From positions 1 through 53,986 of the forward strand of contig CAZZIO010000064.1 in assembly GCA_964654465.1 (NCBI GenBank): a stretch of DNA of 53,986 nucleotides, written 5' to 3'. Positions 7,924 through 49,905 of the stretch are shown piece by piece. The translations under genes were made by a program, and so were the position numbers. Below the pieces are notes generated by a model, which made no database searches, was not told the DNA's origin, and was given only the letters and a program-made list of their open reading frames with translations. This DNA is from an uncultured Dictyoglomota bacterium (GTDB taxonomy: Bacteria; Dictyoglomota; Dictyoglomia; Dictyoglomales; Dictyoglomaceae). Numbering within the stretch: the first letter of the stretch is position 1; each line of letters starts with the position of its first letter.

Positions 7924-7929
7924 GAATCC

Positions 7930-8433: not shown

Positions 8434-8451
8434 AACTTAATACTCCTCAAC

Positions 8452-8486: not shown

Positions 8487-8563
8487 CATCATTGAAAAGT
8501 TCTTGGTTTATATTCTAATATAAACTAATTTAAGGTGACAATAGAGTAAAGATTAAAATTTAA

Positions 8564-8950: not shown

Positions 8951-8970
8951 TATCTTCCTCCTTCCCTAAA

Positions 8971-9888: not shown

Positions 9889-9948
9889 ATTTACCTCATA
9901 TAGTTAAAAATTAAAGTTAACAAAGCAAATATTAAAATTTTGTAAAAA

Positions 9949-9977
9949 ATTATACCAAAGAATACAAGATGTGTCAA
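9949..9977 (-). promoter_or_regulatory. Consensus sigma70 promoter for M23-bactofilin
   Basis: Minus strand TTGACA (9972-9977), 17 bp, TATAAT (9949-9954), with extended -10 TG. Confidence 0.8.
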
Positions 9978-10073
9978 GAAATAAGATTTTATCTTATTTA
10001 CCTCATATTTACTTATGAAACAAAAAGAGTATAATTTATTAAAATAAGGTATCTATTACAGGAGGAACAAAAA

Positions 10074-11615: not shown

Positions 11616-13616
11616 TATTTTCTTAGCATAATCTTTCATCTCATTTAAATAATTTCTTTTCTCTTCTTCAGAAAGAGGAGCAAATTTCAAAGCATAATAC
11701 AGACCAGCAAATTTTATACCATCTTCTCCCAAAGGGCGCATCATCTCATATAAACTTATATTATCCTTTATTAAACCTTTCTTTTTAAGCTTCTTTATAA
11801 CTCTTCTAAAAATCCTATCCTCTTGAATAAGCCTAATCCTATCCATTAAATATTGGAAAAACCATATAATGAACAGAATAGATAAAGCAAATACAACATA
11901 TCTATACTCTAAGGTTATCTTATATAAGAGGACAAATAAACCCTCAATTACCTTACCCATAGACGCAAAAAGTACACTTAATAGATTGACAGAGAGGGAC
12001 TTATCTCTTTCTTCTATTAAGGGAGTGAAAGGTGTAGGATCAATAGGAATCCAACCTACTGGCTCTAAATAAACCTCTACCCAAGCATGTGCATTTTTTA
12101 CCTTCACCTCAAACATTCCAGTCCAAGGATTCAAATCTCCAGGACCATAACCAGTAATAAATCTTGATGGAATCCCAATAATTCTTGCCATAACAGCAAA
12201 AGCGGAAGCAAATTGTTCACAATATCCCTTCTTTGTAACAAAAAGAAAATCATCCACTGCATCCATATCATCTGGAAGGGGAGGTATATCAAGAGAATAC
12301 TCATATCTTTCTAAATACTTTTTTATTGCCATCAATTTATCCCATGGCTTTTCGTAACTCTTTGTAATTTCAAAGGTTAAATCATATATTCTTCTGGGAA
12401 GATTTGGTAACTGAAGATATCTTCTAAACTTATACTTGTCTGGAATTTTAGCATTTAGTAGATCCTTAGCTAACGGATAGATATCCTTATAAAAACTTGT
12501 ATATATAAGACCCTTCGGTAAATCAAAAGGCGCTCTATATCCCTCTTCACCATCTATAAATATCAGGGGAGACGGGAAATAAAGTCTTTGACTATTATGG
12601 GGTAAAAATACTATATTACTTGGTATATCCTTTTCAATAAAATATGTAGCTCTATTTAACATACTTTCAGGGGGAGGATTATTCTTTAAAAGAAATGGCT
12701 GAGACATAGTAGTCACATCTTTTATTTCCTCTTCACTCTGATACCATCCAAAGCCATTGTATGTATCAAAAGCAATTCCTCGATGATATACCTCCCAGGA
12801 AGTTAGTACTCTAAATACTAATGTGGAGGATAACATTCCTCTTTGTCTTAAATCTACAAAAGGTGCAAACCCATAATATTCTTCTTTATCAAAAGGTAAA
12901 GGAGGGATTTTTCTTCCCTCAGGCAATTTATAGAGATTTGTATTTTGCATACTATAAGGTGAAGATAATTCTCCTTGAATATTTGTAATTCGTGTAATTA
13001 ATTGAGACATTATATCTTGTCTAAAACCTATATGAATATTCTTAGGCAAGATGGGAAAAAGTAGAAAACCTATAAGTAATACGATAAAAAATGAGATTGC
13101 TACTCTTGAAAATGATGGTTTGTAATTATTTAATAAAAATAAGGTAATTACAAAACCCAAGAGATAAAATAATATAAAGACTATAAAAAGGCTTTCACGG
13201 GCAAAAATTCCTGAAATAACCATCAAAATTAAACTTATAAAGAAGGAAAAAGACAAATCAAGTCTTGTTGGTAAATCGAGGCTATGGAGAGTATTAAGAT
13301 TTATAAGAAAAACTCCTAATGGTAACCTGGGATCAAAAGGATTTTTAATGAGTTCCACAAAAAACTGCCTTAAAAGATAAAGCATACCAATAGTCATAAA
13401 TATTTTTAGAATTACATTATTCTTTCTCCTTCGAAGATAACTAAAAATATAACCAAAAGCTGTAAATAAAAGAATACCCCCAATATATACTGCAGAAAGA
13501 TTTAAGAAATACCAAACCGAAAGGATAGACATAAAAACAAGGTAAAAGATCGCCAGTCTTATTGCAATAGAGTCTTCAATTCTATTATCTCTAACATCTA
13601 TTCTCTTCCTTTCCAT
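11577..13616 (-). CDS. Membrane transglutaminase-like protein (TgpA/DUF3488 type)
   Basis: Multiple N-terminal TMs; GYCEQFASA, AHAWVEVY, IDPTP catalytic triad. Confidence 0.92.
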   Translation of the reverse strand: MERKRIDVRDNRIEDSIAIRLAIFYLVFMSILSVWYFLNLSAVYIGGILLFTAFGYIFSYLRRRKNNVILKIFMTIGMLYLLRQFFVELIKNPFDPRLPLGVFLINLNTLHSLDLPTRLDLSFSFFISLILMVISGIFARESLFIVFILFYLLGFVITLFLLNNYKPSFSRVAISFFIVLLIGFLLFPILPKNIHIGFRQDIMSQLITRITNIQGELSSPYSMQNTNLYKLPEGRKIPPLPFDKEEYYGFAPFVDLRQRGMLSSTLVFRVLTSWEVYHRGIAFDTYNGFGWYQSEEEIKDVTTMSQPFLLKNNPPPESMLNRATYFIEKDIPSNIVFLPHNSQRLYFPSPLIFIDGEEGYRAPFDLPKGLIYTSFYKDIYPLAKDLLNAKIPDKYKFRRYLQLPNLPRRIYDLTFEITKSYEKPWDKLMAIKKYLERYEYSLDIPPLPDDMDAVDDFLFVTKKGYCEQFASAFAVMARIIGIPSRFITGYGPGDLNPWTGMFEVKVKNAHAWVEVYLEPVGWIPIDPTPFTPLIEERDKSLSVNLLSVLFASMGKVIEGLFVLLYKITLEYRYVVFALSILFIIWFFQYLMDRIRLIQEDRIFRRVIKKLKKKGLIKDNISLYEMMRPLGEDGIKFAGLYYALKFAPLSEEEKRNYLNEMKDYAKKILSNLSARSQKKI

Positions 13617-35883: not shown

Positions 35884-36597
35884 TTGGATGACTATTACTT
35901 TTTCTCAATTGTAATACCCGCCCACAATGAAGTAGGATATGTGGAGTACACCATCGAACATCTCAAAGAAATAGATTATCCTCAAGAAAAATTAGAAGTA
36001 ATCATAGTAGAAAACGGATCTACAGACAGTACCCTTGATGTAATCAGAAAATTTTCTCCTTCATGGTTTAAAATTATATCCATAGAGGAATCAGGTGTTT
36101 CTAAAGCCAAAAATATAGGCATTGAAAATCTCTCTGAAAACAGTAATTGGGCGATATTCTTAGATGCGGATACCTATTTTGAAAAAGATTTCTTAAAGGA
36201 TCTTAACAAATATCTACATGAACATGCTAATGAAAATTTAGGATGTGGTATGGTATCACTCCTACCTTATCCAGATTCAAAAAAAGCAAGATGTTGGTAC
36301 CATTTTTATAATTTTGCCAATAAGACCACAAAAACAACAAGATCTATACAGATAATAAGAAGGGATCTTTTAAAGGATCTCAGATATGATGAAAGCTTAA
36401 CCTTTGATGAAGATACCATGATGATAAGACAATGTAGGAAAAGGGCAAAATATTTCTTCTTTAAGACTAATAAGGTCTACTCATCCACAAGAAGATTTGA
36501 GAAAAATGGATGGATAAAACAATTATTCCAATGGATGTACTATGCATCCCTGCCCTATAATAAAAAGAAAAAGATCAAATACAAAGTACTTCGTTAA
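35884..36597 (+). CDS. Glycosyltransferase family 2
   Basis: SIVIPAHNE, VENGSTD.T, FLDAD, ED, SSTRRF. Promoter TTGCAT-17-TAAAAT upstream. Confidence 0.9.
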   Translation: MDDYYFFSIVIPAHNEVGYVEYTIEHLKEIDYPQEKLEVIIVENGSTDSTLDVIRKFSPSWFKIISIEESGVSKAKNIGIENLSENSNWAIFLDADTYFEKDFLKDLNKYLHEHANENLGCGMVSLLPYPDSKKARCWYHFYNFANKTTKTTRSIQIIRRDLLKDLRYDESLTFDEDTMMIRQCRKRAKYFFFKTNKVYSSTRRFEKNGWIKQLFQWMYYASLPYNKKKKIKYKVLR

Positions 36598-37817
36598 AAA
36601 AGCCTATATAATAACTCCATTACTGTTCCTGATATTATAGGCACACTAAAATTATCATCAATAGGGTTTGGAACAGCTTCAACAATGGAAGCTATTATTG
36701 CTCCTATAAACACTAAATAAAAGGGTAATATATTAAAATACCAAAGAAAGAAAGCACAAGTTATACTAGCACATAGAAAACCGAGAGAACCCTCCAATGT
36801 CTTTTTACTACTCTTAAATATCTTTCTTTCACCAAAATTGATTCCAATCCATTTTGCCATCATATCTCCAAGGGATGTGAATCCAAGAGAAGCAAAAGAA
36901 ATATTTATATCAAAAAGGACAAAACTCAAAAATATTCCAAGAAGAAAGTTTGTTATAGAAGAAACTCTACCCTTCTCTTTCTCCTTAAAAATTCTGAAGT
37001 TTTTAAAAAATTCAAACTGGAAAAAGTTCTCTACTTTCCATAATAAAATCCTTAAGAGATCAATTGTAAAGAAAAGAGCAAGAATTATGCCTATCAATAT
37101 AATTACAAATATTCTGGAAAATATAATAGTAAGAGGTATAAAGAATAAAGCAAAGGGACGTGACATTATCCTCCAAAATGTATGTTTTTCAGTGTAAAAT
37201 TTAAATCCATCCCTTATTAAGTTTTTAACTGCCTCCATAACAATAATAAAAACTAAAGAAAACATAAACCAAAAGTCTGCATTCAAGCCAATATTAAGCC
37301 CTACAAAAGTAACTATAATAGGAAACATGGTCATAGTAAATACATCACCCTTACCCTTTATGGCCATATTAAGCAATAAAGCATAAAGAATAATATATGA
37401 TAAAAGATAAAAGACCTGCAATACTGAAAAGCTTTGGCAAATTACCTTAAAAAATATAAAAAAGAAAAGGCTTAAAGAAGTAGCAAACCCTCTTCCCCCT
37501 CTAAAATCCAAATAAAAGGGAAATTTATGCCCCAAAACAGCAGAAAAACCTGCCAAATATGTATAGGGAAGAGAATATTTAAATAGATAATTAACTATAA
37601 ACATAGGTATAAATCCTTTAAGAACATCATATAAAGCAGTAATAAAGGCTAAGAATCCTCCAACTGTCCTTTTTACATTCAATGTGCCAGGATTACCATC
37701 TCCTACTTTCCTAATATCAATCTTTTTAATCCACAGAGGTAAAAAATAACCTGGTAAAAAGGAACCAAAAAGATATCCTATTAAGGACGATATAAGAACC
37801 CTAACTAAAGTGGTCAT
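36594..37817 (-). CDS. PlsY glycerol-3-phosphate acyltransferase fused to a CTP-dependent lipid kinase (dolichol/phytol/DAG kinase-like) domain
   Basis: N-half: YLFGS, DIRKVGDGNPGTLN, DVLKG, GHKFP...F.GGRG.AT. C-half: GDMMA.WIG..FG, KKTLEGSLG, E.....DDN..VP. Confidence 0.85.
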   Translation of the reverse strand: MTTLVRVLISSLIGYLFGSFLPGYFLPLWIKKIDIRKVGDGNPGTLNVKRTVGGFLAFITALYDVLKGFIPMFIVNYLFKYSLPYTYLAGFSAVLGHKFPFYLDFRGGRGFATSLSLFFFIFFKVICQSFSVLQVFYLLSYIILYALLLNMAIKGKGDVFTMTMFPIIVTFVGLNIGLNADFWFMFSLVFIIVMEAVKNLIRDGFKFYTEKHTFWRIMSRPFALFFIPLTIIFSRIFVIILIGIILALFFTIDLLRILLWKVENFFQFEFFKNFRIFKEKEKGRVSSITNFLLGIFLSFVLFDINISFASLGFTSLGDMMAKWIGINFGERKIFKSSKKTLEGSLGFLCASITCAFFLWYFNILPFYLVFIGAIIASIVEAVPNPIDDNFSVPIISGTVMELLYRLF

Positions 37818-38754: not shown

Positions 38755-38858
38755 CAATCTTTAATAGCCTATAATTTCATATACCCTTGGAAGTATTTAA
38801 TTCTTGATATTTGTACAAAATTTAGATAAAATCAAAAACAAAAAGGATTTGTTAAAAA

Positions 38859-39257
38859 ATGCACGAGTGGGCTTTAGCAGAAGGTGTTGTAAACACAGCT
38901 TTAGAAATAGCTCAGAATAAAAATCTGAGAGAGGTAAAAACTTTATTGTTAAAAGTAGGAGAAATTCAACAAATAGATTTAGAAATTTTTGATTTTGCAT
39001 TAAAAGAACTTTCTAAAGACACAATTTTAGAGAATGCAGAAATAAAATATGAGAATTTTACAGCTTATCTATTATGCAATTTTTGTGGACATAAATGGGC
39101 TTTTTACGAAAGTTTCAACCAACTTAATGAAGAAGAAAAAGAAGCAATTCACTTTGTGCCAGAAACCATCCATGTATATATTAAATGTCCAAAATGTGGA
39201 AGCCCTGATTTTGAAATAACAGAAGGAAGAGGAGTATTTATAGAGGATGTATTATGA
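38859..39257 (+). CDS. hypA: Hydrogenase nickel metallochaperone HypA (Thermococcales-like long form)
   Basis: MHE Ni motif, CNFC...CPKC Zn finger with long spacer containing IHFVPE. Confidence 0.95.
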   Translation: MHEWALAEGVVNTALEIAQNKNLREVKTLLLKVGEIQQIDLEIFDFALKELSKDTILENAEIKYENFTAYLLCNFCGHKWAFYESFNQLNEEEKEAIHFVPETIHVYIKCPKCGSPDFEITEGRGVFIEDVL

Positions 39258-39985
39258 AACTCATTGATCCCAGATTATCGGTAATTGAAAAAAGGTTAGA
39301 AAACGTAAAAAGAATTATACCTGTAGCAAGTGGAAAGGGAGGAGTTGGAAAAAGCATTATATCTGCACTTTTGGCCCTTTTGTTAAAGGAAAAAAATTAT
39401 AAAATAGGACTTTTAGATCTTGATTTATATGGTCCTTCGTTACATATTCTTTTGAACAATCAACATTCCTTTCCCAAAGAGGAATATGGCCTAAAACCGG
39501 TAAATATTAACAATATTGATTTCATGTCCATCATTTACTTTACCCAAAACAAACCCCTTATCATGAGAGGGAAAGAATTAACAGACACCCTGATTGAGCT
39601 ATTCACAATTACAAGATGGAATTCTCTTGACTTCCTTATTATAGATATGCCTCCTGGAATGGGAGAGATACTCTTAGATCTTATAAGATTAATCAATAGA
39701 TTGGAATTTCTTATAGTAACAAACTCTACGAAAATTGCCATGGAAACAGTAGAAAAGCTTATAATATTTTTAAAAGATCAAAATATACCCATAATTGGGC
39801 TCATTGAGAACATGAAAATAGGAGATCAAGATTTTGTAAAAGAAAAATGTAATAGTTTAGGTATAAACTATTTAGGAAAAATTTCCTTCTACCATAAGTT
39901 AGAAGATTATTACGGAGATAATAAAGAAATAATAAATTCTCCTATCTCAGAAGAAATCTCTCAAATAGTTAATTTCTTTGTATAA
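39254..39985 (+). CDS. Mrp/MinD-family ATPase, probably ATPase-type HypB
   Basis: SGKGGVGKS, DLD..G.S, IDMPPG.G, ENM without the following CxxC; coupled to hypA. Confidence 0.8.
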   Translation: MKLIDPRLSVIEKRLENVKRIIPVASGKGGVGKSIISALLALLLKEKNYKIGLLDLDLYGPSLHILLNNQHSFPKEEYGLKPVNINNIDFMSIIYFTQNKPLIMRGKELTDTLIELFTITRWNSLDFLIIDMPPGMGEILLDLIRLINRLEFLIVTNSTKIAMETVEKLIIFLKDQNIPIIGLIENMKIGDQDFVKEKCNSLGINYLGKISFYHKLEDYYGDNKEIINSPISEEISQIVNFFV

Positions 39986-40013
39986 AAATCTTGTATAAGA
40001 GAGAGGGTGGACT

Positions 40014-41693
40014 ATGGAGAACATCAAGATTAAAGTAAATGGAAGTGAGGTAGAAGTTTCTCCTGGTAAAACTGTACTCCAAGTCTTAAGTGAACTTGGT
40101 ATACACGTACCTGTGCTTTGCCATTATGAACCCCTTATGCCTCAAGGTTCATGTAGGCTGTGTGTAGTAGAAGATAGAGGTGTTTTAAAAACTGCTTGTA
40201 CAACTCCTGTAGAGCCCAACATGGACATAAAAACCGATACACCTAACGTAATCAATTCAAGAAAACTGGTCCTACAGCTCCTATTTACCGAAAGGAACCA
40301 TTATTGTATGTATTGTGAAGTCACTGGTGAATGTGAACTTCAAGATCTGGGATACGAATTTGGATTAGATCACTTTGAGTTTCCTACTTACGAGAGAAAA
40401 TTCCCCGTAGACAATTCCCATCCCTTCATAATTATGGATCATAATCGCTGTGTACTATGTAGAAGATGTGTAAGAGCATGTTCTGAAATAGCAGGACACT
40501 TTGTACTTGGTGAAATGGAAAGAGGAATTGATACCATGATTATCGCAGATATGGACATACCCCTTGGTAAGTCCTCTTGCGTATCTTGTGGACTTTGCGC
40601 CCAAGTATGCCCAACAGGAGCTATCATAGATAAAAGATCTGCCTACTTAGGGAGAGAAGTACAATCGGATGTTATCTATACAAACTGTGACTTATGTCCT
40701 GTAGGATGTGGTATAGAGGTTTATAAAAAGAAAGGAGCAAATTTCATAGTAAAAATATATGGAGATTGGAACTCTGATGTATCTCAAGGAGTTCTTTGCA
40801 AAGTTGGAAGATATTTATCCCTTTATGATGAAAAGAAAAGATTAACAGGAATAAGAGTAAAAGATGATTTTGGATACAGAAAAATTAGTGAAGATCAACT
40901 TATAAAATTAGTAAAAGATAAGATAGATAAAGGAATCGCTTATGTAGATGGTACTTTATTTAATGAAGAATTGGAGTTAATTAAAGAATTATTCAAAGAT
41001 AAAGTATATGCCCTCAATCCTGAGGAAATTCCCATATCATCTAATATAACCTTAAACGATTTGGATAATAGAAACTTCTACGTTGTTATTGGTGCAGATC
41101 TCAATAGAGAATATGGTACCGTAGGATCCATAGTGAAAAGAAATGTTATAGGAAATAAAGCAAAACTTATGGTAATAGATAAGGAATTTAATAGTCTTGC
41201 TAAACTTGCTGATTATGTGTTTAACATAAAAGATATGTCCATGGCTTTGGAAATAATTAAGAAACAAGATGACGTAGTAGTTATATATAAGGATATAAAT
41301 AGCGATGAAATAAAGCTCCTATCCTCATTAACAAATGCCAAATTCCTCTATCTACCAAAAGAGACTAATTCCTTAGGGCTTCAAAAATTAGGAATAAAAC
41401 ATAACAACATTACTGCTGAATATGTATTTGTATTCGGAAAGAATTTAGAAGGCTTAAAGAATCTAAACATAAAGGATGCTACAGTCTTTGTATTTACACC
41501 ATATGAAAATGATGAAATTCACAAAGCAACTGTATTAGTCGGAATCTCTAACGGTTTTGAAAGAGAAGGAACTTTCTATAATTTAGAAGGAAAGAAGTTA
41601 AAGAGAGAAAAAGTACTAAGACCAACATATGACACTGTAGATTTAAAGACTTTCCTTTCACAAATCTTAGGAAGAGCAGAAAAAGTTTCTTAA
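40014..41693 (+). CDS. Multi-Fe-S subunit (HoxU/NuoG/HydA-like) with degenerate molybdopterin-oxidoreductase-like C-terminus
   Basis: 2Fe-2S (LC..GSCRLC..AC), HYCMYC...C, CVLCRRCVRAC, CVSCGLCAQVCP, CDLCPVGC...LC; no H-cluster motifs. Confidence 0.88.
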   Translation: MENIKIKVNGSEVEVSPGKTVLQVLSELGIHVPVLCHYEPLMPQGSCRLCVVEDRGVLKTACTTPVEPNMDIKTDTPNVINSRKLVLQLLFTERNHYCMYCEVTGECELQDLGYEFGLDHFEFPTYERKFPVDNSHPFIIMDHNRCVLCRRCVRACSEIAGHFVLGEMERGIDTMIIADMDIPLGKSSCVSCGLCAQVCPTGAIIDKRSAYLGREVQSDVIYTNCDLCPVGCGIEVYKKKGANFIVKIYGDWNSDVSQGVLCKVGRYLSLYDEKKRLTGIRVKDDFGYRKISEDQLIKLVKDKIDKGIAYVDGTLFNEELELIKELFKDKVYALNPEEIPISSNITLNDLDNRNFYVVIGADLNREYGTVGSIVKRNVIGNKAKLMVIDKEFNSLAKLADYVFNIKDMSMALEIIKKQDDVVVIYKDINSDEIKLLSSLTNAKFLYLPKETNSLGLQKLGIKHNNITAEYVFVFGKNLEGLKNLNIKDATVFVFTPYENDEIHKATVLVGISNGFEREGTFYNLEGKKLKREKVLRPTYDTVDLKTFLSQILGRAEKVS

Positions 41694-41708
41694 AAAGAGG
41701 TGAAAACA

Positions 41709-42251
41709 ATGGGTAAGATAAAAGTAGCTTCCATATGGTGTGAGGGATGTTCTGGATGCCATATGTCCTTCTTAGATATGGACGAAAGACTTGTAGAACT
41801 TATAAATAAAGGCCTGGAGATCAATGCTACTCCTATAACAGATTTAAAGATACCTGATGAAGGAACAGATATAGGAATAATTGAAGGAGCAGTAGCCACA
41901 GACCATCATGAAGAAGAAGTAAAAATGATGAGAGAAAAATGTAAATTTATAGTTGCCCTTGGAGATTGTGCTGTATTTGGTGGAATTCCTACCATGAGAA
42001 ACTATGTTTCTGTAGAAGAACTTCTTGAAAGAGGCTATATTACCACAGAAAGTACAGTACAAGGTAAAATACCTTCTTCTGAAGAGCTAGGGAAACATCT
42101 TCCCAAAGTAAAAGCGGTAAATGAAGTTATAAAAGTAGATTTCTACATCCCAGGTTGTCCACCCTCAGCAGATGCTATTTATTATGTATTAAAAGAAATT
42201 TTAGAAGGAAGAGTACCTAAATTAGAAGGCGAACTTCTTAAGTATGAATAA
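41709..42251 (+). CDS. hoxY: [NiFe] hydrogenase small subunit (HoxY/HydS type, single cluster)
   Basis: GCSGCHMS, EGAV, GDCA..GG, PGCPP; ATG 41709. Confidence 0.9.
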   Translation: MGKIKVASIWCEGCSGCHMSFLDMDERLVELINKGLEINATPITDLKIPDEGTDIGIIEGAVATDHHEEEVKMMREKCKFIVALGDCAVFGGIPTMRNYVSVEELLERGYITTESTVQGKIPSSEELGKHLPKVKAVNEVIKVDFYIPGCPPSADAIYYVLKEILEGRVPKLEGELLKYE

Positions 42252-42264
42252 TGAGGTGAGAACT

Positions 42265-43689
42265 ATGGAAAGAAAAATTACCATAAGCCCAGTTACAAGA
42301 ATAGAAGGACACGCAAGAGTTACAATCCATTTAAATGAAGATGGAAAAGTGGAAAAAGCCTTTATGCATGTAGACCAATTTAGAGGCTTTGAAAAATTCT
42401 CTGAAGGAAGACATTTCTCTGAAATGCCAATTATAACACCAAGAATCTGCGGAATATGCCCCATTAGTCACCATTTAGCATCTGCTAAAGCTACTGATGA
42501 AATCATAGGAGTAGATATACCAAAGACCGCTAAACTTCTGAGAGAACTAATCCACATGGGGCAGTTTATTCAATCCCATTCAATGCATTTTTTTGAGCTT
42601 GCAGGGCCAGATCTTATACTTGGTTGGGATGCTGATCCCAAAATAAGAAATGTGGTAGGATTAATTCAAGCTAATCCTCAACTTGCTTTAAAAGCAGTAA
42701 AGCTTAGAAAATTTGGACAAAGAATTATTGAACTTGTAGCAGGAAGAAGAATACATCCCACATTTGCAATACCTGGAGGAGTAAACTCTGCACTATCTAT
42801 CGAAGCAAGAGACGAGATATTAAAAGGAATAGATGAGATGATAGAGTATATAAAAGAGGGTATAAAAATAGCAGAGGACTTTATAGAGAAGAATAAAGAA
42901 ACTTGTAACAAATTTGCCAGCTTCTCCACAGGTTATATGGGACTTGTAAAAGAGGATGGATCATTAGAACTTTATGATGGAAAAATAAGATTCATGGATA
43001 AAGATGGAAATATAGTAAAAGAATTTAAGCCTAAGTACTATCTTAAATATATTGGAGAAAAAGTGGAAGATTGGACATACTTAAAATTCCCCTATTACAA
43101 ACCTTTTGGATATCCTGAGGGAGTATATAGAGTAGGACCTCTTGCAAGACTAAATGTGGCGGAAAAAATAAGCACACCTTTAGCAAATGAAGAATTCAAA
43201 AAATTCAAAACTCTTGGAAATGGAAAACCAGTAGAAGGATCCATATATTATCACTATGCAAGATTAATTGAAACCATCTATGCATTAGAAAGAACAAGAG
43301 AAATTCTTGAGGATCCAGACGCAATGAGCCAAGATGTATTAAGGCTTGGAGAAGTAGTCAATGAGGAAGGAATTGGAGTAGTAGAAGCTCCTCGTGGTAC
43401 ACTAATTCATCACTATTGGGTAGATGAAAAAGGAACTATTGAAAAAGTAAACTTGATAGTATCAACTGGACATAATAACTGGGCAATGAATAAGGCAGTA
43501 GAAGAGGTAGCAAAAGCCTTTATAGATGGGAAAAATTTAAAAGAAGGGATGCTAAATAGAGTTGAGGGAGCCATAAGATGCTATGATCCATGTCTCTCCT
43601 GCTCTACCCATGCTATAGGAAAGATGCCCCTTCTAATAGAGCTTTATGATAAAGATGGAAATCTCTTGGATACAATAAAAAGAGATTGA
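42265..43689 (+). CDS. hoxH: [NiFe] hydrogenase large subunit, group 3 (HoxH/HydL type)
   Basis: PVTRIEGH, L1 TPRICGICPISH, EAPRGTL.H, L2 RCYDPCLSCSTH plus cleavable C-terminal tail. ATG 42265 fits SD. Confidence 0.93.
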   Translation: MERKITISPVTRIEGHARVTIHLNEDGKVEKAFMHVDQFRGFEKFSEGRHFSEMPIITPRICGICPISHHLASAKATDEIIGVDIPKTAKLLRELIHMGQFIQSHSMHFFELAGPDLILGWDADPKIRNVVGLIQANPQLALKAVKLRKFGQRIIELVAGRRIHPTFAIPGGVNSALSIEARDEILKGIDEMIEYIKEGIKIAEDFIEKNKETCNKFASFSTGYMGLVKEDGSLELYDGKIRFMDKDGNIVKEFKPKYYLKYIGEKVEDWTYLKFPYYKPFGYPEGVYRVGPLARLNVAEKISTPLANEEFKKFKTLGNGKPVEGSIYYHYARLIETIYALERTREILEDPDAMSQDVLRLGEVVNEEGIGVVEAPRGTLIHHYWVDEKGTIEKVNLIVSTGHNNWAMNKAVEEVAKAFIDGKNLKEGMLNRVEGAIRCYDPCLSCSTHAIGKMPLLIELYDKDGNLLDTIKRD

Positions 43690-44108
43690 AAAAAGTATTA
43701 TTAGTAGGTTTTGGAAATCCTTATAGAAGAGATGATGGCTTAGGAATAAAGCTCCTGGACCTTATAGATGATAAGGTAGAAAAACTCAAGGTCCAGGAGC
43801 TTACTTTTGATATGGCAGAAATCCTTAAAGATTATGACATAGTCATATTCATTGATGCTTCCATAGAAGGAGATGAAATATCATTTAAAAAAATAACAGA
43901 AGAAAAGACTTTTTCCCCTCTTACCCACCACACATCCTGTGAAGAACTACTTTCCTGGACAAAAACTCTTTATAATAAAAATCCTGAATTTTATCTTCTA
44001 TCCATAAGAGGGTATGATTTTGATTTTGGAGAAGAAATCTCGGAAAAGGCTTTAGAAAACCTAAAAAAAGGATTAGAATTTATAAAAGGATTTCTTGAAA
44101 ATATATAA
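43686..44108 (+). CDS. Hydrogenase maturation endopeptidase (HoxW-like)
   Basis: GFGNP.R.DDGLG, FIDA, THH. Confidence 0.92.
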   Translation: MKKVLLVGFGNPYRRDDGLGIKLLDLIDDKVEKLKVQELTFDMAEILKDYDIVIFIDASIEGDEISFKKITEEKTFSPLTHHTSCEELLSWTKTLYNKNPEFYLLSIRGYDFDFGEEISEKALENLKKGLEFIKGFLENI

Positions 44109-46345
44109 TGGAAAAAACCTATAAAATAAAAATCTGGGGAATTGTTCAAGGAGTTGGATTTAGACCCTTTGTATACAGGCTTGCTAAAAGCCTAAATCTT
44201 AGAGGATGGATCTTAAACTCTACAGGATCTGTTCATATACTAATTCAAGGAGAGGAAGAAAAAATAAAAAAATTTTTAGATGATCTTGTAAAAGAAGCCC
44301 CTCCTCTCTCCAAAATAGAAAAAATTGAAAAAGAAGAAATAAATCTCTCAGAAAACATTATAGATTTCTCAATTATTGAAAGCAAAGAAGATACTGGATT
44401 TAACTTCATATCTCCAGATATAGCCATATGTGAAGACTGCTTTAAAGAAATGAGAGATCCAAAAGATCGCAGATTTAATTATCCATTTATAAACTGTACT
44501 AACTGTGGCCCAAGATATACCATTATTGAAGATTTACCATACGACAGAGATAAAACAACCATGAAAATATTCCAGATGTGTGAAAGATGCGAAGAAGAAT
44601 ATCACGATCCAGAATCAAGAAGATTTCATGCTCAACCTATATCTTGTTATGATTGTGGACCAACTCTCTGGATAGATGGAGAAGAAGCTTCAAACATTTT
44701 TGAAAAAATTGGAAAATACTTAGAAGAAGGAAAAATATTAGCTATAAAAGGGCTTGGTGGCTTCCATTTAGCCTGTGATGCCACTAATGAAAGAGCAGTT
44801 ATAAAATTAAGAGAGAGAAAGAAAAGACCATCTAAACCCTTTGCCCTTATGATGAAAGATATGGATACGATAAAGAAATACTGCTATGTGAATGAGGATG
44901 AAGAAAAAATATTACTTTCAAAAGAAAGACCAATAGTCCTTTTAAAAATTAAAGATCCAAGAGATATATCCGAATATGTGGCTCCTAATAACAAATATTT
45001 AGGCATAATGCTTCCCTACACGCCTTATCATTATCTCATATTTGATTACTTTCCAAAACCTCTCATAATGACAAGTGGAAATATATCTGATGAGCCTATT
45101 ATTAAAGATAATGACCATGCAAAGGAAAGACTTAAAAACATAGCGGATGTATTTATCTTTCATAACCGAAATATAGCCCACAGAGTAGATGATAGCGTAG
45201 TTTTTGTAGAAAACAAAGAATTAAATATTATAAGAAGAGCAAGAGGATATGCTCCTGATCCAATAAAAATTCCTATAAAGATAAAGCCTACTCTTGCCCT
45301 TGGTGGAGAACTGAAAAACACCTTTTCCCTTGGTAAAGAAAATTATGTTTTCATGAGTCCCCATGTTGGAGATTTAAAAGATAAAGATACCCTTCAGGTA
45401 TATGAAGAAATAATTCAAGAGTTCATCAGACTATTTAGGATAGAGCCTGAAATCTTAGTACATGACTTACATCCCCAATATTTATCCACAGATTTTGCAG
45501 AAAAATTTAAAAAATATATGGAGGTAAAAGCCATTCAACATCATAAAGCTCACTTTTTCTCTCTACTTTTAGATAGAGGAATCACTGATAATATTATTTG
45601 TTTCTCCTTTGATGGTACTGGATATGGGGAAGATGGAAATATATGGGGTGGAGAAGTATTTATAGGAAATTTGGAAGAAGTAAAAAGAGTAGCTCATTTT
45701 AAATATTTTCCAGTGGCTGGAGGAGATTATGCTATAGAAAACCCAAGATTAATTGCACTATCTTATATAACCAAATATTTACCATCTGAAATTGAAAAGA
45801 TATTCCCCCATATTGATCCATTTGAAAAAGAGATAACAAAAAGATTAATTGAAAAAGATGAAAACATATTTTACACATCCTCCTGTGGTAGAATTTTTGA
45901 TTTAGTCTCTGCCCTTTTAGGAATAAGGGAAAAAATAGATTATGAAGGTCAAGCTGCCATAGAACTTGAAATGGAAGCTATGGAATCTGACGAAGAAGAC
46001 TTTTATCCCTTTAAAATGATAAAAGAAAAAGAAACATTTAAGATTGATATATATCCGACCATTGAAAAGATAATTTTAGAAAAAGAAAAGTATGAGAAAA
46101 AGGATATCGCTAAAAAATTTCATAACACCATTACCCAAATAATTCTACAAATCTCAGAAATATTAAGAGAAGAATATAAAATCAATAAAATAGGCTTATC
46201 AGGAGGTGTATTTCAAAATAGACTTCTTTTAAGAACAACTATACCCTTATTAAGAAATAAAGGTTTTGAAGTATTCACTCATAAAAATGTACCCACCAAT
46301 GATGGAGGAATCTCCTTAGGACAGATTATTTTAGGAAAAGAATAA
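44108..46345 (+). CDS. hypF: Carbamoyltransferase HypF
   Basis: GIVQGVGFRP acylphosphatase domain, CxxC Zn fingers, KGLGGFHL, DLHPQY, QHH.AH, DGTGYG, NDGGISLGQ. Confidence 0.97.
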   Translation: MEKTYKIKIWGIVQGVGFRPFVYRLAKSLNLRGWILNSTGSVHILIQGEEEKIKKFLDDLVKEAPPLSKIEKIEKEEINLSENIIDFSIIESKEDTGFNFISPDIAICEDCFKEMRDPKDRRFNYPFINCTNCGPRYTIIEDLPYDRDKTTMKIFQMCERCEEEYHDPESRRFHAQPISCYDCGPTLWIDGEEASNIFEKIGKYLEEGKILAIKGLGGFHLACDATNERAVIKLRERKKRPSKPFALMMKDMDTIKKYCYVNEDEEKILLSKERPIVLLKIKDPRDISEYVAPNNKYLGIMLPYTPYHYLIFDYFPKPLIMTSGNISDEPIIKDNDHAKERLKNIADVFIFHNRNIAHRVDDSVVFVENKELNIIRRARGYAPDPIKIPIKIKPTLALGGELKNTFSLGKENYVFMSPHVGDLKDKDTLQVYEEIIQEFIRLFRIEPEILVHDLHPQYLSTDFAEKFKKYMEVKAIQHHKAHFFSLLLDRGITDNIICFSFDGTGYGEDGNIWGGEVFIGNLEEVKRVAHFKYFPVAGGDYAIENPRLIALSYITKYLPSEIEKIFPHIDPFEKEITKRLIEKDENIFYTSSCGRIFDLVSALLGIREKIDYEGQAAIELEMEAMESDEEDFYPFKMIKEKETFKIDIYPTIEKIILEKEKYEKKDIAKKFHNTITQIILQISEILREEYKINKIGLSGGVFQNRLLLRTTIPLLRNKGFEVFTHKNVPTNDGGISLGQIILGKE

Positions 46346-46572: not shown

Positions 46573-49500
46573 ATGAATAACTTAAAAAAATTAAAAACAT
46601 TTTTTCTTTTTATAACTCTTTTTTTCCTTTTATCTCAGTTAACAATAGGGAAAGAAATCACAAACTCTGAAGATTGTATTCTATTTAAAGATGATTTCGA
46701 AAGAAAGGAAATAGGTACCAACTGGATCATTGTGGATGATGCTCCTTCTTCTGATTGGAAAATACAAGATGGAAAACTTGTTCAGAACAGTAACGTGTAT
46801 AGAGCAGATAGTGAGTATGACTACTTTCAAGGTACCCACATAGTTACCAAAGAAAGTTTTTCAGATTTTATTTTTTCCTTTGATTTAACATCCACCGATG
46901 ATGATGGAATTGGAGCTGTCTTTAGATATCAAGATAAAAACAATTATTATAGATTCATCATGGTAAAAGACCCCCAAAATAAAGGACCTTTTAGAAGAAT
47001 TGACAAGATTGTTAATGGCAAACCATTTCAAGTGCTTGCTATTGATAAGAATAACGCCTATGAAGTTGGAAAAAAATATAGGATTACTATTGAAGCAGTA
47101 GGAAATCAAATTAAAGTATTCATTGATGACAAAGAAATTTTATCTACTCAAGATGCTACATTCACAACAGGAAAATTAGGTTTTATGACATATGCAAATA
47201 CTGGATACTTTGATAATGTTTGTGTTTCTATAGTAAATAACAAAACCACATCTTCTGAAAATTTAACAAGTTTTAATTGGACCGGTACGTGGGATACAAC
47301 CTGGGGAAAGATGTATTTAGTACAAGTAGGGAATATGGTTATAGGATATTATGAGCATGACAACGGAAAAGTTGCTGGTAAAGTAATAGATAATAAATTA
47401 ATAGGTATTTGGTTAGAAGCTCCCTCATACTCACCCCCAAAAGATGGAGGAGAATTTGAATTAACCCTATCTCCTGATGGCACATCCTTCACCGGCAGAT
47501 GGAGATATGGAAATTCTGGAGACTGGAATACTGATTGGGAGGGTAAAAAGATTTCTGATATTGTCCCATCTCAAGAATTTAACATCCGATCTGAAAAAGA
47601 TTCAATCTCAAACATAATTGAAGCAAGTACCAAAGAAAAAACAGTTATTTCTCCTGAACAAGTATCCTTTTATGATAAGGGAGAAAAAGCCATTCAATCA
47701 GAAATGAATATTGGTCCTTCTGGTGGTGAGATAGTATTATCAGATGGAACAAAACTTTTAATCCCTCCAAATACAATCAAAGAAGATACAAAAATAAGCA
47801 TAAAATCAATCACAAATCCAATATTTTACTCAAAGGAGGCAAAAGGGATTGAAATAAGTGGTATCCAAAAACTTTTAGGTGAAATTACTCTTGTTGTAAA
47901 TGGTCCAAAAGCTTTAACAAATGATGAATTAAACATCTTTGGCTACGACCATATAAATAAAGGGAAACTTGATTTAGAATATGAATATAATCCTTCCACA
48001 GGAATTATTTCAATAAAACTATCACCCTCTTTAATATATAGGTCATCTCTGTCAAATATAAAGTTATGTTACAACACATTAGAAAAGATAAGCGCTGATT
48101 CTAATACTCTTAGTCTAAAAGATAGACTATTCATATATATAGGATATATTCCTAAATACACCCCAAAACAAAAAGAAAAGATCATAAGAATGCCATACTA
48201 TGAACAGATTGGAGGATCTTGCGTTTCAACAAGTGCACTAATGTTTCTTAAATTTTCAGGAAAAGATATTGAACTATATGACATTTTAAGAGAGTTAGGA
48301 GCAAATGATTCTGATTTTGGCTTAGACGAAGATCAAATTGTATATTCACTGAAAGACTATCTTAGCAAAGAAACAGGTTTTACCGCCTATTCAGTACCTA
48401 TATTTAAGTTAGATCATTTAAAATGGAGGGTTCTTTCTGAAATAGATAAAGGACATCCCGTTATTTTAAGCTGGGGAGATCATGCTGTAGTATTACTTGG
48501 ATATACCGAAAATGGAGAAAAAATAATCATGCATGATCCCCAAAATATTTCTCCAGCAAACAATGAAAACGGAACTATGTACACCATCAGAGATTGGAAC
48601 TTTATAAAAAATAGACATAAATTCCCAACTGAAAAGTATATAATTATAGTTGTAGACGGAAACTTCGCTACAAGCCCGTCTTTATCCTTGGAATTACCTG
48701 CAAGAGATGAAAAAGGAGCAATGACTACAGGAGATATATCATTCCTTGTTAGAAATCCCAATAATCAAAAATTAGTACCTTTTTACCAATTACAAATAAA
48801 ACCATCAGAAAGTAAAGATGGTTATATATGGGTTAAATCAACAGGTGATAAATTAGAAATAATACCTCAAGATGCAGAAGTTTTAAATTTAAAGCTATAC
48901 ATTTATAACGGCTCAAATTACAGCAGAGATATTGAAGTGTATGCCACAATTGATGAAGGAAGATATGGAATTCCAGGAAAGCGTATAACCTACAATAGAG
49001 CTAAATTTACCATACCTGAAGCAAAGTTTAATGAGGCAAACTATATAACTTATAATCATCAATTTAAACTTGAAGATATAAGAGATTTAACACTTGGAGA
49101 TAAAGACGGAAAACAAGAGATATTAATAAGAGTGGGATTATGGGAAGGAGATTTAGTAAGAGACTCCTTCTCTATAAAAGCAGTTATATCGCTTATTCCA
49201 AAAGTTCTATCAATAGAACCAAATACAGGATCTCCTGGAGATATAATTACCATAAAAGGTCTTGCTTTTGGAAAAAATCAATCATCAAAAAGTAAAGTTA
49301 TGATAGGAAATACCACAGCTGAAATTTTAAGTTGGAATGACAAAGAGATAAAAATTAAAGTTCCTGAAAATGTTCAAACAGGTCCTGTAGTGGTATATGT
49401 TGGAGAAAAATATACTTATGAATCAAATAAAGATGTAAATTTTAATGCAAAGACAAAAGTTAAAACTCCTCTAAAAAGAAATTTAAATGGTATTCATGGG

Positions 49501-49905
49501 TTAAGTTTTACATTACCCGAGTGGGTCCATAGAGAGGGCAAATGGTATATAGAAACACCTGCTGTCGTTTACCTTAAATTTTCTGACGGTAGCATAGAAG
49601 GGGTAAAAGGAGAAGGATATCATACATCTATAGCTTCCGGATCTTACAATGATGAAAATTTAATGGTTTATTTTGAATGGAGTTTCTTTGATGATGGCAG
49701 AGATTATTGGAATACAATAGTAAAAGGCAAATTTGAGGGTAAAATAAGAGATTGGAAATATCAAAATAATGTAATTGGAGTAATAATAGAAGGAGAGATA
49801 AATTGTACAGTCAGATGTTTTTATATAGATGTAGAGAATAATAAAACAGTTTACGATGTACAAAAAGACTTTACTATTCCTGCTTGGATTTCAATTCAAT
49901 TTTAA
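46573..49905 (+). CDS. Large secreted multidomain protein: ConA/LamG-like domain, Trp-rich beta-barrel, ZU5-like, C39-like cysteine peptidase, IPT/TIG
   Basis: Signal peptide; F.DDF..W...DDDGIGAVFRYQD..NYY; WTGTWDTTWG..FTGRW; IGPSGGEI...L.IPP; PYYEQ..SC...HAVVLLGY...HDP; P.V.SI.P..G.PG..ITI.G..FG. Confidence 0.8.
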   Translation: MNNLKKLKTFFLFITLFFLLSQLTIGKEITNSEDCILFKDDFERKEIGTNWIIVDDAPSSDWKIQDGKLVQNSNVYRADSEYDYFQGTHIVTKESFSDFIFSFDLTSTDDDGIGAVFRYQDKNNYYRFIMVKDPQNKGPFRRIDKIVNGKPFQVLAIDKNNAYEVGKKYRITIEAVGNQIKVFIDDKEILSTQDATFTTGKLGFMTYANTGYFDNVCVSIVNNKTTSSENLTSFNWTGTWDTTWGKMYLVQVGNMVIGYYEHDNGKVAGKVIDNKLIGIWLEAPSYSPPKDGGEFELTLSPDGTSFTGRWRYGNSGDWNTDWEGKKISDIVPSQEFNIRSEKDSISNIIEASTKEKTVISPEQVSFYDKGEKAIQSEMNIGPSGGEIVLSDGTKLLIPPNTIKEDTKISIKSITNPIFYSKEAKGIEISGIQKLLGEITLVVNGPKALTNDELNIFGYDHINKGKLDLEYEYNPSTGIISIKLSPSLIYRSSLSNIKLCYNTLEKISADSNTLSLKDRLFIYIGYIPKYTPKQKEKIIRMPYYEQIGGSCVSTSALMFLKFSGKDIELYDILRELGANDSDFGLDEDQIVYSLKDYLSKETGFTAYSVPIFKLDHLKWRVLSEIDKGHPVILSWGDHAVVLLGYTENGEKIIMHDPQNISPANNENGTMYTIRDWNFIKNRHKFPTEKYIIIVVDGNFATSPSLSLELPARDEKGAMTTGDISFLVRNPNNQKLVPFYQLQIKPSESKDGYIWVKSTGDKLEIIPQDAEVLNLKLYIYNGSNYSRDIEVYATIDEGRYGIPGKRITYNRAKFTIPEAKFNEANYITYNHQFKLEDIRDLTLGDKDGKQEILIRVGLWEGDLVRDSFSIKAVISLIPKVLSIEPNTGSPGDIITIKGLAFGKNQSSKSKVMIGNTTAEILSWNDKEIKIKVPENVQTGPVVVYVGEKYTYESNKDVNFNAKTKVKTPLKRNLNGIHGLSFTLPEWVHREGKWYIETPAVVYLKFSDGSIEGVKGEGYHTSIASGSYNDENLMVYFEWSFFDDGRDYWNTIVKGKFEGKIRDWKYQNNVIGVIIEGEINCTVRCFYIDVENNKTVYDVQKDFTIPAWISIQF

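Follow-up and report, generated by a model that had tools for sequence, protein, structure and literature searches.

The window, that is, the whole stretch of DNA analyzed (53,986 nucleotides, contig C64), contains a seven-gene operon for a [NiFe] hydrogenase and its maturation. Neighboring genes are separated or overlapped by -8 to +28 bases, and the operon extends beyond 40014-43689, with maturation genes on both sides of hydA-hydS-hydL. Its features, in order, are:

38804..38832, forward strand: promoter-like site TTGATA-17-TAAAAT upstream of hypA (consensus scan, 10/12 matches)
38859..39257, forward strand: hypA, nickel metallochaperone (Pfam HypA, 88 bits; NCBIfam PRK03824, 195.6 bits, cut-off 125)
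39254..39985, forward strand: Mrp/MinD-type P-loop ATPase, probable ATPase-type HypB (Pfam ParA/NUBPL, 184 bits)
40014..41693, forward strand: hydA, NuoG-like electron-transfer subunit without H cluster, 559 aa (Pfam, Cys motifs, PDB, fold)
41700..42251, forward strand: hydS, small subunit with the proximal 4Fe-4S cluster only, 183 aa (Oxidored_q6, 111.7 bits)
42244..43689, forward strand: hydL, [NiFe] large subunit, group 3, Acetomicrobium mobile HydL type, 481 aa (PDB 7t2r_D)
43686..44108, forward strand: hydP, hydrogenase maturation endopeptidase (NCBIfam TIGR00072, 57.5 bits, cut-off 47.45)
44108..46345, forward strand: hypF, carbamoyltransferase (TIGR00143, 838 bits)

The Mrp/MinD-type ATPase gene, which probably encodes an ATPase-type HypB, keeps its slot between hypA and hydA in 10 related loci, and the place of hydP directly 3' of hydL is also kept across related loci. 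RNA contigs from two libraries (a ~92%-identical relative) start at 38844 and 38847, near the promoter-like site; 33 such sites were observed in the region against a shuffle mean of 39.7, i.e., not above shuffles. There is a weak hint that 38804..38832 may serve as the hypA promoter.

HydA contains the Pfam domains Fer2_4, NADH-G_4Fe-4S_3, Fer4_Nqo3, and Molybdop_Fe4S4 and a degenerate molybdopterin-type tail, whose Molybdopterin match is sub-threshold (22 bits, cut-off 24). The H-cluster domain (Fe_hyd_lg_C) was absent from HydA in the Pfam search. Its motifs correspond to one 2Fe-2S cluster (A1; C36/47/50/62) and four 4Fe-4S clusters (A2-A5), the first of them with H96-C98/101/107 and the others with C146/149/152/156, C189/192/195/199, and C225/228/232/262. 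Pfam and the Cys pattern confirmed the initial annotation, which had described a protein of 559 residues with these five cluster motifs and a Mo-oxidoreductase-like tail, far longer than HoxU. Indeed, the HoxU model (238 positions) spans only HydA residues 4-210 and scores 226 bits, below its cut-off of 333; compared with HoxU (~240 aa), HydA is over twice as long, carries a fifth cluster, and ends in a tail of the NuoG type.

The best PDB matches of HydA, HydS, and HydL are all subunits of the A. mobile NiFe-HydABCSL (PDB 7T2R/7T30), to which the initial annotation had already likened the module. HydA matches 7t2r_A with 236 bits, aligned over residues 2-329 only, and its AF2 model (pLDDT 88.4) has 7t30_A/7t2r_A as top fold matches over the whole length (TMq 0.84-0.85). 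HydS matches 7t2r_E (179 aa) over its full length (191 bits), and its Cys ligands (C14, C17, C90, and C153) are those of the proximal cluster only. HydL matches 7t2r_D over its full length with 605.6 bits, the top of 68 PDB matches, followed by HoxH (5xf9_D, 431 bits) and MvhA (5odc_F, 429 bits). It has the motifs RICGICPISH (L1) and DPCLSCSTH (L2), the NiFe-ligating residues C69, C72, C450, and C453, and a 25-aa C-terminal extension.

Two other group 3 families were considered. The genes after the 559-aa protein had been called HoxY- and HoxH-like, and these open reading frames are present at 41700-42251 and 42244-43689; among PDB relatives, HoxH ranks second for HydL and HoxY fourth for HydS. 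The group 3d enzymes HoxEFUYH/HoxFUYH (PDB 5XF9) have the same wiring of flavoprotein, FeS subunit, small subunit, and large subunit. Assignment to group 3d was rejected: a HoxU-sized subunit is missing (HydA has 559 aa), and hoxE/hoxF are absent from the window. The other candidate is an enzyme of the Mvh/Vhu type (group 3c), in which MvhD would relay electrons to a partner resembling heterodisulfide reductase. Among NCBIfam models, VhuA (479 bits) and VhuG (144 bits) score highest, and MvhA ranks close to HoxH for HydL, but both model scores are far under the cut-offs (800 and 450). HydS, with 183 aa and one cluster, aligns to only the first ~173 residues of MvhG/VhuG (~290-310 aa), and the gene adjoining hydS-hydL encodes the NuoG-like HydA. 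PF02662 (MvhD/FlpD) was not matched anywhere in the genome, which is 99.97% complete; this result contradicts an Mvh/Vhu-type enzyme and makes it extremely improbable.

In common with the A. mobile enzyme, the locus has the cluster motifs of HydA, a one-cluster small subunit, and a protease gene after hydL. On the other hand, HydA is shorter (559 aa vs. 692 aa), and hydC/hydB, which belong to the A. mobile operon, are here on another contig, hypA and the ATPase-type hypB gene being upstream of hydA instead. HydL, HydS, and HydA thus have the features of the NiFe-HydABCSL type, whereas HydB/HydC are not part of the same operon. The initial annotation had pointed out that hoxE/hoxF (hydC/hydB) genes are absent from the operon and the window, and a whole-genome profile search gave no PF01512 or PF01257 match on C64. 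The 4 matches to PF01512 and 7 to PF01257 are all on contigs C18, C22, C44, and C56. Locating these nuoE/nuoF-like genes, which had been proposed as a check, revealed three NuoEF pairs. Those on C18 and C22 are orphans with no catalytic head alongside, and the source genome has only two NuoG-type proteins, the HydA of the window and the [FeFe] HydA of C56.

On C18, the genes are ordered hydC-hisK-hydD-hydB within a ten-gene operon that also encodes an [FeFe]-type sensor protein; HydD and HisK are included in the A. mobile operon as well (Feng et al. 2022, PMC8880783). The C18 HydB (596 aa) matches 7t2r_B over its full length (958 bits) and shares 63-72% identity with those Synergistaceae HydB proteins whose genes adjoin hydA-S-L. 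It is unfused, has an ordinary two-cluster ferredoxin-type C-terminus, and contains every Cys of clusters B1-B5, sequence features that assign it to the bifurcating type (NADH and ferredoxin).

The short pair on C22 has no counterpart in the A. mobile system. In its HydB', the N-terminal cluster Cys are missing, as is the entire two-cluster (B3/B4) domain at the C-terminus; the protein stops at the equivalent of 7t2r_B residue 537 and retains three Cys equivalent to the A. mobile cluster B2 ligands. Non-bifurcating, NADH-dependent HydB subunits are described for Syntrophomonas wolfei Hyd1ABC and Syntrophus aciditrophicus HydAB, with the criteria of no B3/B4, T/S and K/S/A at Thermotoga maritima positions 232/234, and no GGPSG (Losey et al. 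2020, PMC7311640). In HydB', B3/B4 are missing, PGTFKD has T and K in place of A and M of bifurcating forms at positions 232/234, as mapped to T. maritima numbering via the C56 orthologue and its motif rather than by direct alignment, and GGAAG replaces GGPSG; position 367, the third criterion, was not mappable. These cluster losses and published signatures identify HydB', at the sequence level, as an NADH-only, non-bifurcating type. It resembles the beta subunits of Losey et al. and the "sub-type II" BfuB in the classification of Zheng & Huang (2024, PMC11406978). The S. wolfei and S. aciditrophicus enzymes are described with [FeFe] heads in cis (PMC7311640), whereas the C22 pair has as its candidate head a [NiFe] HydA-S-L module from another locus.

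C56 carries a complete [FeFe] HydABC operon, whose HydB is of the complete bifurcating type (best PDB match 7p5h_B, T. maritima HydB, 1061 bits; 766 bits to 7t2r_B). The initial annotation had suggested that the module borrows HydBC from elsewhere, for example from an [FeFe] locus with interchangeable heads. HydBC-type pairs do exist elsewhere in the genome; the [FeFe] locus as their source was not supported. The full-length C56 HydB would suit such borrowing, and a two-pair cassette adjoins NiFe and FDH heads in other genomes, but the C56 HydBC has its own head in cis while two head-less pairs are available. Moreover, among 11 Dictyoglomota genomes from 3 genera, [FeFe] HydA and its HydB occur in 7; the other 4, all 99% complete, lack both and keep the NiFe module. 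We consider this source very unlikely.

HydL and the C18-type HydB were found in all 11 Dictyoglomota genomes and the C22-type pair in 10, the exception being a 72%-complete genome. Linkage in cis between the HydA-S-L module and either type of pair was observed in none of the 11, and in the two complete genomes module and pairs are hundreds of kb apart. By contrast with this split, two Caldisericota genomes (G099 and G100) have all parts in a tight co-directional cluster, sensor-PHP-hisK-hydC-hydD-hydB(1024 aa)-hydC'-hydB'(524 aa)-hydA-hydS-hydL-hydP, and they fall inside a 100%-supported clade with loci that lack hydB/hydC (FastTree, both HydL and HydA). The PHP-hydC-hisK-hydD-hydB set of C18 is also directly upstream of hydA-S-L in six loci (L019, L031, L033, L038, L040, and L047), and relatives of the short pair are directly upstream of hydA in three Chloroflexota loci (L034, L035, and L060). 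The initial annotation had allowed for a dedicated hoxEF pair elsewhere and relatives with an ordinary contiguous hoxEFUYH operon that was merely split here. Dedicated pairs and contiguous relatives were indeed found; the contiguous form, however, is not an ordinary hoxEFUYH but a cluster of the NiFe-HydABCSL type that includes diaphorase pairs of two kinds.

These arrangements also bear on the second suggestion of the initial annotation, that HydA-S-L alone is a flavin-free, ferredoxin-linked heterotrimer and that the orphan NuoEF pairs have other roles. HydA would then conduct electrons in the manner of a polyferredoxin and bind ferredoxin through its 2Fe-2S or A3 region, by analogy with the monomeric [FeFe] hydrogenase of clostridia, for which A3 is a proposed ferredoxin site (Feng 2022, PMC8880783). 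In favor of this reading, the operon forms a closed unit that includes maturation genes but no diaphorase gene, and this layout is kept in 12 loci of several phyla (up to 10 kb examined on either side, with a shorter upstream stretch for L024). In two genomes with this layout (G003 and G005), a bifurcating-type HydB is absent and the only NuoF forms are short and divergent, implying that no partner type is universal. However, in the closest contiguous relatives, which belong to the same HydA/HydL clade, two NuoEF pairs immediately precede hydA, and the A1 domain and cluster Cys are the same in homologues with and without adjacent hydB/hydC (all 19 Cys invariant in 31/31 aligned HydA relatives). 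In addition, three 99%-complete genomes (G010, G014, and G015) retain both head-less pairs although the NiFe HydA is their sole PF10588/NuoG-type protein. A flavin-free enzyme is unlikely.

Complex prediction also argues against it. HydB' and HydC' of C22, the one pair modeled, were combined with HydA residues 1-270 and gave a complex score of 0.89, compared with 0.00 for the best of 3 controls; the pass mark was reached by 116/157 solved complexes and 2/215 mismatched pairs. Runs agreed in at least 95% of contacts, partner pLDDT was at least 85, and in the predicted interface the part of HydB' surrounding the B1-cluster Cys faces the A1 region of HydA. The prediction supports docking of the C22 pair onto HydA, but similarity to complexes already solved (7T2R, complex I) may account for the pass.

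Taken together, the contiguous two-pair relatives and the three genomes with HydA as the only NuoG-type protein favor a split NiFe-Hyd(ABC)SL. It is quite probable that the window encodes the H2-activating half of a hydrogenase of the A. mobile NiFe-HydABCSL (NiFe-Bfu) kind, with the flavin half encoded in trans. With the NADH-binding half encoded at two other sites of the genome, the locus is best read as an operon that has been split and not as a novel enzyme type. By homology to 7T2R, electrons would pass from the NiFe site through the proximal cluster of HydS to A3, A2, and A1 of HydA, and from A1 to the 4Fe-4S cluster B1 and the FMN of the NuoF-type subunit; physical assembly and bifurcating activity are predicted.

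The module would dock onto at least one of the C18 and C22 pairs. Use of both is a tentative possibility, and use of the C18 pair only is equally so; the C22 pair as the only partner seems rather unlikely. A more specific proposal, which we regard as less probable than not, is that in Dictyoglomota one HydA-S-L is shared by the bifurcating-type HydBC, encoded in the operon with the H2-sensor-like [FeFe] protein, and the non-bifurcating-type HydB'C'. Sharing might yield two alternative holoenzymes, coupled to NADH and ferredoxin or to NADH only, in a ratio governed by sensing of H2 or redox state, or alternatively a single supercomplex with two flavin sites; separate loci for the three parts would permit independent regulation.

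To our knowledge, the A. mobile enzyme is the only characterized bifurcating [NiFe] hydrogenase. Dictyoglomus species are cultured, H2-producing thermophiles. The HydA-S-L module was detected in 45 loci from Synergistota, Thermodesulfobacteriota, Chloroflexota, Caldisericota, Dictyoglomota, and Calescibacteriota, with three diaphorase forms (ferredoxin-tailed, NADPH-domain-fused, and short) and with one pair, both kinds, or none in cis. A 2022 survey describes NiFe-Bfu as a small Synergistetes sub-clade with 6 members in BfuB clade 49 and also lists archaeal Halorhabdus versions (PMC9304861). Surveys requiring co-located BfuA/B/C would count Dictyoglomus as having a flavoprotein-less hydrogenase and head-less flavoproteins; for annotation, a diaphorase-less operon does not imply a ferredoxin-only hydrogenase.

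Co-occurrence does not discriminate in Caldisericota, where HydB homologues are present in 79/93 genomes and this HydL type in 13/93, and the HydB tree gave no resolved placement of the C18 HydB in a NiFe-specific clade. The long HydBs adjoining NiFe hydA-S-L in relatives have Fer4_20 and Pyr_redox_2 in 8/8 tested, and orphan or cis HydBs of Caldisericota are likewise fused. This form corresponds to "sub-type I" BfuB, in which a DPD_II and FAD/NAD(P) domain replaces B3/B4 and which is described for [FeFe] hydrogenases (PMC11406978); the Dictyoglomota C18 HydB, in contrast, is unfused. Beside the C22-type clade branch divergent NuoE-NuoF fusions of Calescibacterium, which resemble the S. aciditrophicus HydB, also described as a NuoE-NuoF fusion (PMC7311640). 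In favor of a link between such pairs and the module, one locus is ordered hydS-hydL-hydP-hypF-hypD-hypE-nuoEF (L043), and in another (L075) the fusion is right after hypE; in genome G004, the short pair adjoins hypD-hypE. Finally, in G013 a complete BfuA of the formate-dehydrogenase type comes after a C18-type HydB gene, and in G029 a two-pair cassette precedes FdhA, indicating that NuoEF pairs also serve other heads; the two-module platform also takes FDH heads in other phyla.

The hydrogenase module placed at 40014..43689 by the initial annotation was recovered with exactly the same ORF coordinates for hydA, hydS and hydL. These genes, which encode a NuoG-like electron-transfer subunit and the [NiFe] small and large subunits, are part of a tight operon:

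38859–46345, seven-gene operon: hypA, Mrp/MinD-type ATPase, hydA, hydS, hydL, maturation protease, hypF
40014–41693, hydA: 559 aa, Pfam domains Fer2_4, NADH-G_4Fe-4S_3, Fer4_Nqo3 and Molybdop_Fe4S4, plus a sub-threshold Molybdopterin match
41700–42251, hydS: small subunit with one cluster, 183 aa
42244–43689, hydL: [NiFe] large subunit, 481 aa, motifs RICGICPISH and DPCLSCSTH, 25-residue C-terminal extension

The 19 Cys residues of HydA form one 2Fe-2S and four 4Fe-4S motifs, as had been proposed for this protein; none of them varies in any of the 31 aligned relatives. Two other ORFs were noted nearby. One (36594–37817, minus strand) encodes 407 aa, roughly double the length of PlsY (G3P acyltransferase) models; this domain occupies residues 13–200 only, and no domain is assigned to the C-terminal half. 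The other (46573–49905, directly after hypF) encodes an 1110-aa protein with 3-keto-disaccharide hydrolase, Peptidase_C39_2 and IPT/TIG domains, which has, as far as seen, no relation to the hydrogenase.

Comparison of the window proteins with all PDB sequences revealed that each of the three subunits has the corresponding subunit of the electron-bifurcating NiFe-HydABCSL of Acetomicrobium mobile as its best match: HydL with 7t2r_D (605.6 bits, full length, followed by HoxH with 431 and MvhA with 429), HydS with 7t2r_E (191 bits) and HydA with 7t2r_A (236 bits, residues 2–329). In a fold search with an AlphaFold2 model of HydA (pLDDT 88.4, pTM 0.85), 7t30_A/7t2r_A were the best matches over the whole length (TMq 0.84–0.85), followed by complex I 75-kDa subunits. 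The shortened, Mo-oxidoreductase-like tail noticed initially in HydA is thus the C-terminal fold of NuoG and NiFe-HydA. An Mvh-type hydrogenase was also considered and rejected, because VhuA and VhuG, the best NCBIfam models for the NiFe subunits, scored far under their cut-offs and neither MvhD nor FlpD was found in the genome. These scores place the enzyme between groups 3c and 3d, alongside the A. mobile type. The existence of the module is confirmed, and it is of the NiFe-HydABCSL kind; the one family feature that it lacks is the presence of HydB/HydC, the NuoF/NuoE-type diaphorase pair, in cis.

A search of the whole genome (1.91 Mb, 72 contigs, 99.97% complete) for NuoE and NuoF families gave no match on the window contig, in agreement with the initial observation that neither the operon nor the window has a diaphorase gene; all matches are on contigs C18, C22, C44 and C56. 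Locating these genes, as the initial annotation had suggested, yielded three pairs and an RnfC, each with one of the four PF01512 proteins of the genome:

C44: RnfC, inside an Rnf operon
C56: complete [FeFe] HydABC locus (sensor, SpoIIE, hydC, hydB, hydA, rex)
C18: hydC (162 aa), hisK-like (177), hydD-like (130), hydB (596); 5', PHP, DRTGG, CBS/HATPase and a 441-aa [FeFe]-hydrogenase-like protein; 3', glycerol kinase
C22: lone short pair, hydC' (153) and hydB' (543)

The best match of C56 HydB is T. maritima HydB (1061 bits), and that of C18 HydB is the A. mobile NiFe-HydB (958 bits, residues 4–595 against 5–596). For the A. mobile operon, Feng et al. (2022, PMC8880783) name HydD, HisK and HydP as additional genes. 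No hydA was found at the C18 locus. The genome encodes one [NiFe] large subunit and one catalytic [FeFe] HydA, and the only NuoG-type proteins are window HydA and the [FeFe] HydA on C56; a weak third Fer2_4 match (C65), considered as a HydA-type (BfuA) subunit, is the corrinoid-activation protein RACo. Hence, NuoEF pairs outnumber heads, the catalytic modules that dock onto such a pair, by three to two.

The two head-less pairs differ in kind. C18 HydB retains the Cys residues of the N-terminal cluster (B5), the B1 Cys and, in the two-cluster domain at the C-terminus, all eight Cys, and three Cys align with the B2 ligands given in Feng 2022. In C22 HydB', none of the four N-terminal Cys is left and the entire C-terminal domain is missing, and the B1 and B2 Cys are retained. 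The same form, lacking B3, B4 and B5, is described for [FeFe] enzymes as "sub-type II" in Zheng & Huang (2024, PMC11406978). Sequence criteria for the bifurcating and non-bifurcating classes were taken from Losey et al. (2020, PMC7311640). With T. maritima numbering mapped via the C56 orthologue, a mapping that leaves their third criterion (position 367) outside, C18 and C56 HydB have the bifurcating-type PGAFM, with GGPAG and GGPSG, respectively, and C22 HydB' has the non-bifurcating signature PGTFK and GGAAG. At locus L013 (G000:C22; locus coordinates 4097–4957), a gene with VIT1 and rubrerythrin domains is convergent with C22 hydB'. "Rub-Bfu" enzymes, in which BfuB (the HydB-type subunit) is followed by rubrerythrin, are proposed in Schut 2022; such a partnership was not accepted here, given the convergent orientation of the gene and its membrane-transporter domain.

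Among 11 Dictyoglomota genomes from three genera, HydL (87–100% identity) and C18-type HydB (88–100%) are present in all, and C22-type HydB' in ten, being missing solely from a 72%-complete genome. Approximately 0.2–1 Mb separate the NiFe operon and the C18- and C22-type pairs from one another in the two genomes that consist of a single contig. The position of hypD was rejected as a link, since in two complete Dictyoglomus genomes it lies 5–12 kb downstream of hydL and near neither NuoEF pair. [FeFe] HydA with its HydB occurs in seven of the 11 genomes; the four that lack the [FeFe] enzyme, all 99% complete, keep the NiFe module, so that in Dictyoglomota the module cannot depend on the [FeFe] locus. 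The initial suggestion that the module borrows HydBC encoded elsewhere holds in outline, trans pairs being present on C18 and C22, but the [FeFe] locus (C56) is very improbable as the source of the borrowed HydBC. In three of these four genomes (G010, G014 and G015), NiFe HydA is the sole PF10588 protein. In G013, the fourth genome, a BfuA of the formate-dehydrogenase type comes after C18-type hydB (L077, G013:C45:2–2194, minus strand; 731 aa or more, as it runs past the end of the contig, with a Molybdopterin match of 298 bits); no head was found beside C18-type hydB in the other ten genomes. Two conserved, intact, head-less NuoEF pairs therefore remain where the window-type HydA is the only NuoG-type head.

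To examine gene order in relatives, species-representative genomes were scanned with HydL, and the 45 loci obtained were mapped in tblastn searches, for which proteins of the window and of the orphan pairs served as queries. The closest HydL relatives are from Dictyoglomaceae MAGs. HydB lies upstream of hydA-S-L in 23 loci. Seven of these, from Synergistota, have a C18-like HydB, whole (597–653 aa) in three and cut by the contig start in four; Pfam confirms a ferredoxin-type tail for one of them, L054. Thirteen loci from Thermodesulfobacteriota and Chloroflexota (L019, L028, L031–L033, L036, L038–L040, L044, L046, L047 and L050) have a HydB of 901–1087 aa, in which, in all eight tested, Fer4_20 and Pyr_redox_2 (a GltD/NfnB-like, NADPH-type domain) replace the ferredoxin-type C-terminus. 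PMC11406978 describes this form for [FeFe] enzymes; no description of a GltD-fused HydB adjoining a NiFe head was found in the literature searched. Two Chloroflexota loci have a short C22-like HydB' alone, and L034 has a fused HydB and the short pair together.

Twelve of the 45 loci have no HydB/HydC within up to 10 kb on each side (less upstream in L024); nine were too short for a layout call, and one (L043) lacks hydA. In ten of the 12 BC-less loci, from Dictyoglomaceae, Caldisericota, Calescibacterium and two further MAGs, hydA is immediately preceded by hypA and the Mrp-type ATPase gene, the arrangement of the window; in L026 and L027, a gene for a HAD hydrolase takes their place. In quick IQ-TREE trees, the BC-less loci form one clade for both HydL (support 81; inner 17-row clade 99) and HydA (99), with L026/L027 unstable, inside it in these trees and outside in FastTree. 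Because of this single clade in both subunits, detachment of hydB/hydC looks like one old event spread across phyla.

A survey of 93 Caldisericota genomes found HydB homologues in 79 and this HydL type in 13, so that co-occurrence is uninformative on partner choice. Two of them (G099 and G100), whose HydL is 73–74% identical to that of the window, have a co-directional cluster: sensor-like [FeFe] protein, PHP, hisK, hydC, hydD, hydB (1024 aa, GltD-fused), hydC' (152), hydB' (524), hydA (549–550 aa), hydS, hydL and hydP; no gap in the hydB–hydP stretch exceeds 91 bases. Their hydB' products are 62–64% identical to C22 HydB', and both genomes group with the BC-less loci in a FastTree clade with 100% support, for both HydL and HydA. 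Layouts of an intermediate kind are present in other Caldisericota. The same two-pair cassette occurs in L086 (G029:C1, 6740–16818; PHP-hydC-hisK-hydD-hydB(GltD-fused)-hydC'-hydB'-fdhA), but its head is a formate dehydrogenase (908 aa). In G002, G022 and G042, the two pairs are arranged in tandem and hydA-S-L lies elsewhere or outside the region covered (hydA-S-L layout seen for G002 only, locus L059), and G001 has only the fused C18-type cluster. Judging from these layouts, both kinds of pair occur in cis with this hydrogenase lineage, of which Dictyoglomota have the fully dispersed version.

Short divergent NuoF forms tied to hyp/hyd genes were also found in Calescibacterium, beside the C22-type clade in a HydB tree (quick IQ-TREE, 38 rows) that has a backbone polytomy, one [FeFe]-linked HydB reference and a truncated ORF (L051) on a very long branch. 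In G004, a C22-type pair adjoins hypD-hypE. In L043 (Calescibacterium SKYB43, 4103–13324), a NuoE-NuoF fusion of 626 aa comes after hydS-hydL-hydP-hypF-hypD-hypE on the same strand; upstream of hydS, where hydA is missing, are Cmr genes of a type III CRISPR system and an AAA-ATPase-like gene. In L072 (G004:C22, 8617–12545), an orphan C18-type hydB directly precedes rnfD and two genes for Rnf-Nqr membrane subunits (rnfE/rnfA-like), and the interval contains no rnfC; this adjacency may reflect chance or a NuoF-type subunit in the place of RnfC.

Taken as it stands in its operon, the module could be a flavin-free enzyme, which is unlikely given that close relatives hold both kinds of pair in cis. 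Instead, HydA-S-L quite probably works with at least one trans-encoded NuoEF pair. The genome supplies one complete bifurcating-type pair (C18) and one non-bifurcating-type pair (C22), and we propose that the head lacking from the C18 operon is the window module. A more speculative idea, which we consider rather doubtful, is that one [NiFe] head serves two diaphorases, one bifurcating and the other not, under the control of an H2 sensor. No account of the NiFe module of Dictyoglomus, of NiFe-HydABCSL in split form or of a NiFe operon with two diaphorases was found in the literature searched; one supplement of PMC9304861 contained neither Dictyoglomus nor Caldisericum, and the supplementary figures of that paper may list such genes.

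The proposed structure prediction of HydA with HydBC was run for the C22 pair, chosen as the less textbook case, with HydB' and HydC' (alignments A2 and A3) against HydA residues 1–270. The complex passed with a score of 0.89, the best of three controls having 0.00; of 157 solved complexes, 116 attain this score mark, compared with 2 of 215 mismatched pairs. The runs shared at least 95% of contacts, and partner pLDDT was at least 85. In the predicted interface, HydB' 450–466 and 486–499 (holding the B1 Cys) face the 2Fe-2S region of HydA, and HydC' 36–59 faces HydA 163–181. The model supports binding of HydA by the C22 pair; since similar complexes have been solved (7T2R, complex I), the pass may reflect resemblance to these, and it shows that the canonical interface is still recognisable and not that these copies bind.

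RNA-library contigs matching the operon were present in two metatranscriptome runs from different studies (shares of 0.06 and 0.05 of sampled words). They cover hypA to hydL, and one of 5170 bases spans 38844–43988, past the start of hydP; their identity of approximately 92% points to a relative, and not the organism of the window, as the source. As these are assembled contigs with possible DNA carry-over that give no expression level, they are at most a hint that the operon of the relative is transcribed as a unit. The contigs of the two runs start at 38844 and 38847, 12–15 bases ahead of the start codon of hypA and closely 3' of a promoter-like TTGATA-17-TAAAAT (38804–38832), and these positions may represent the transcript start.
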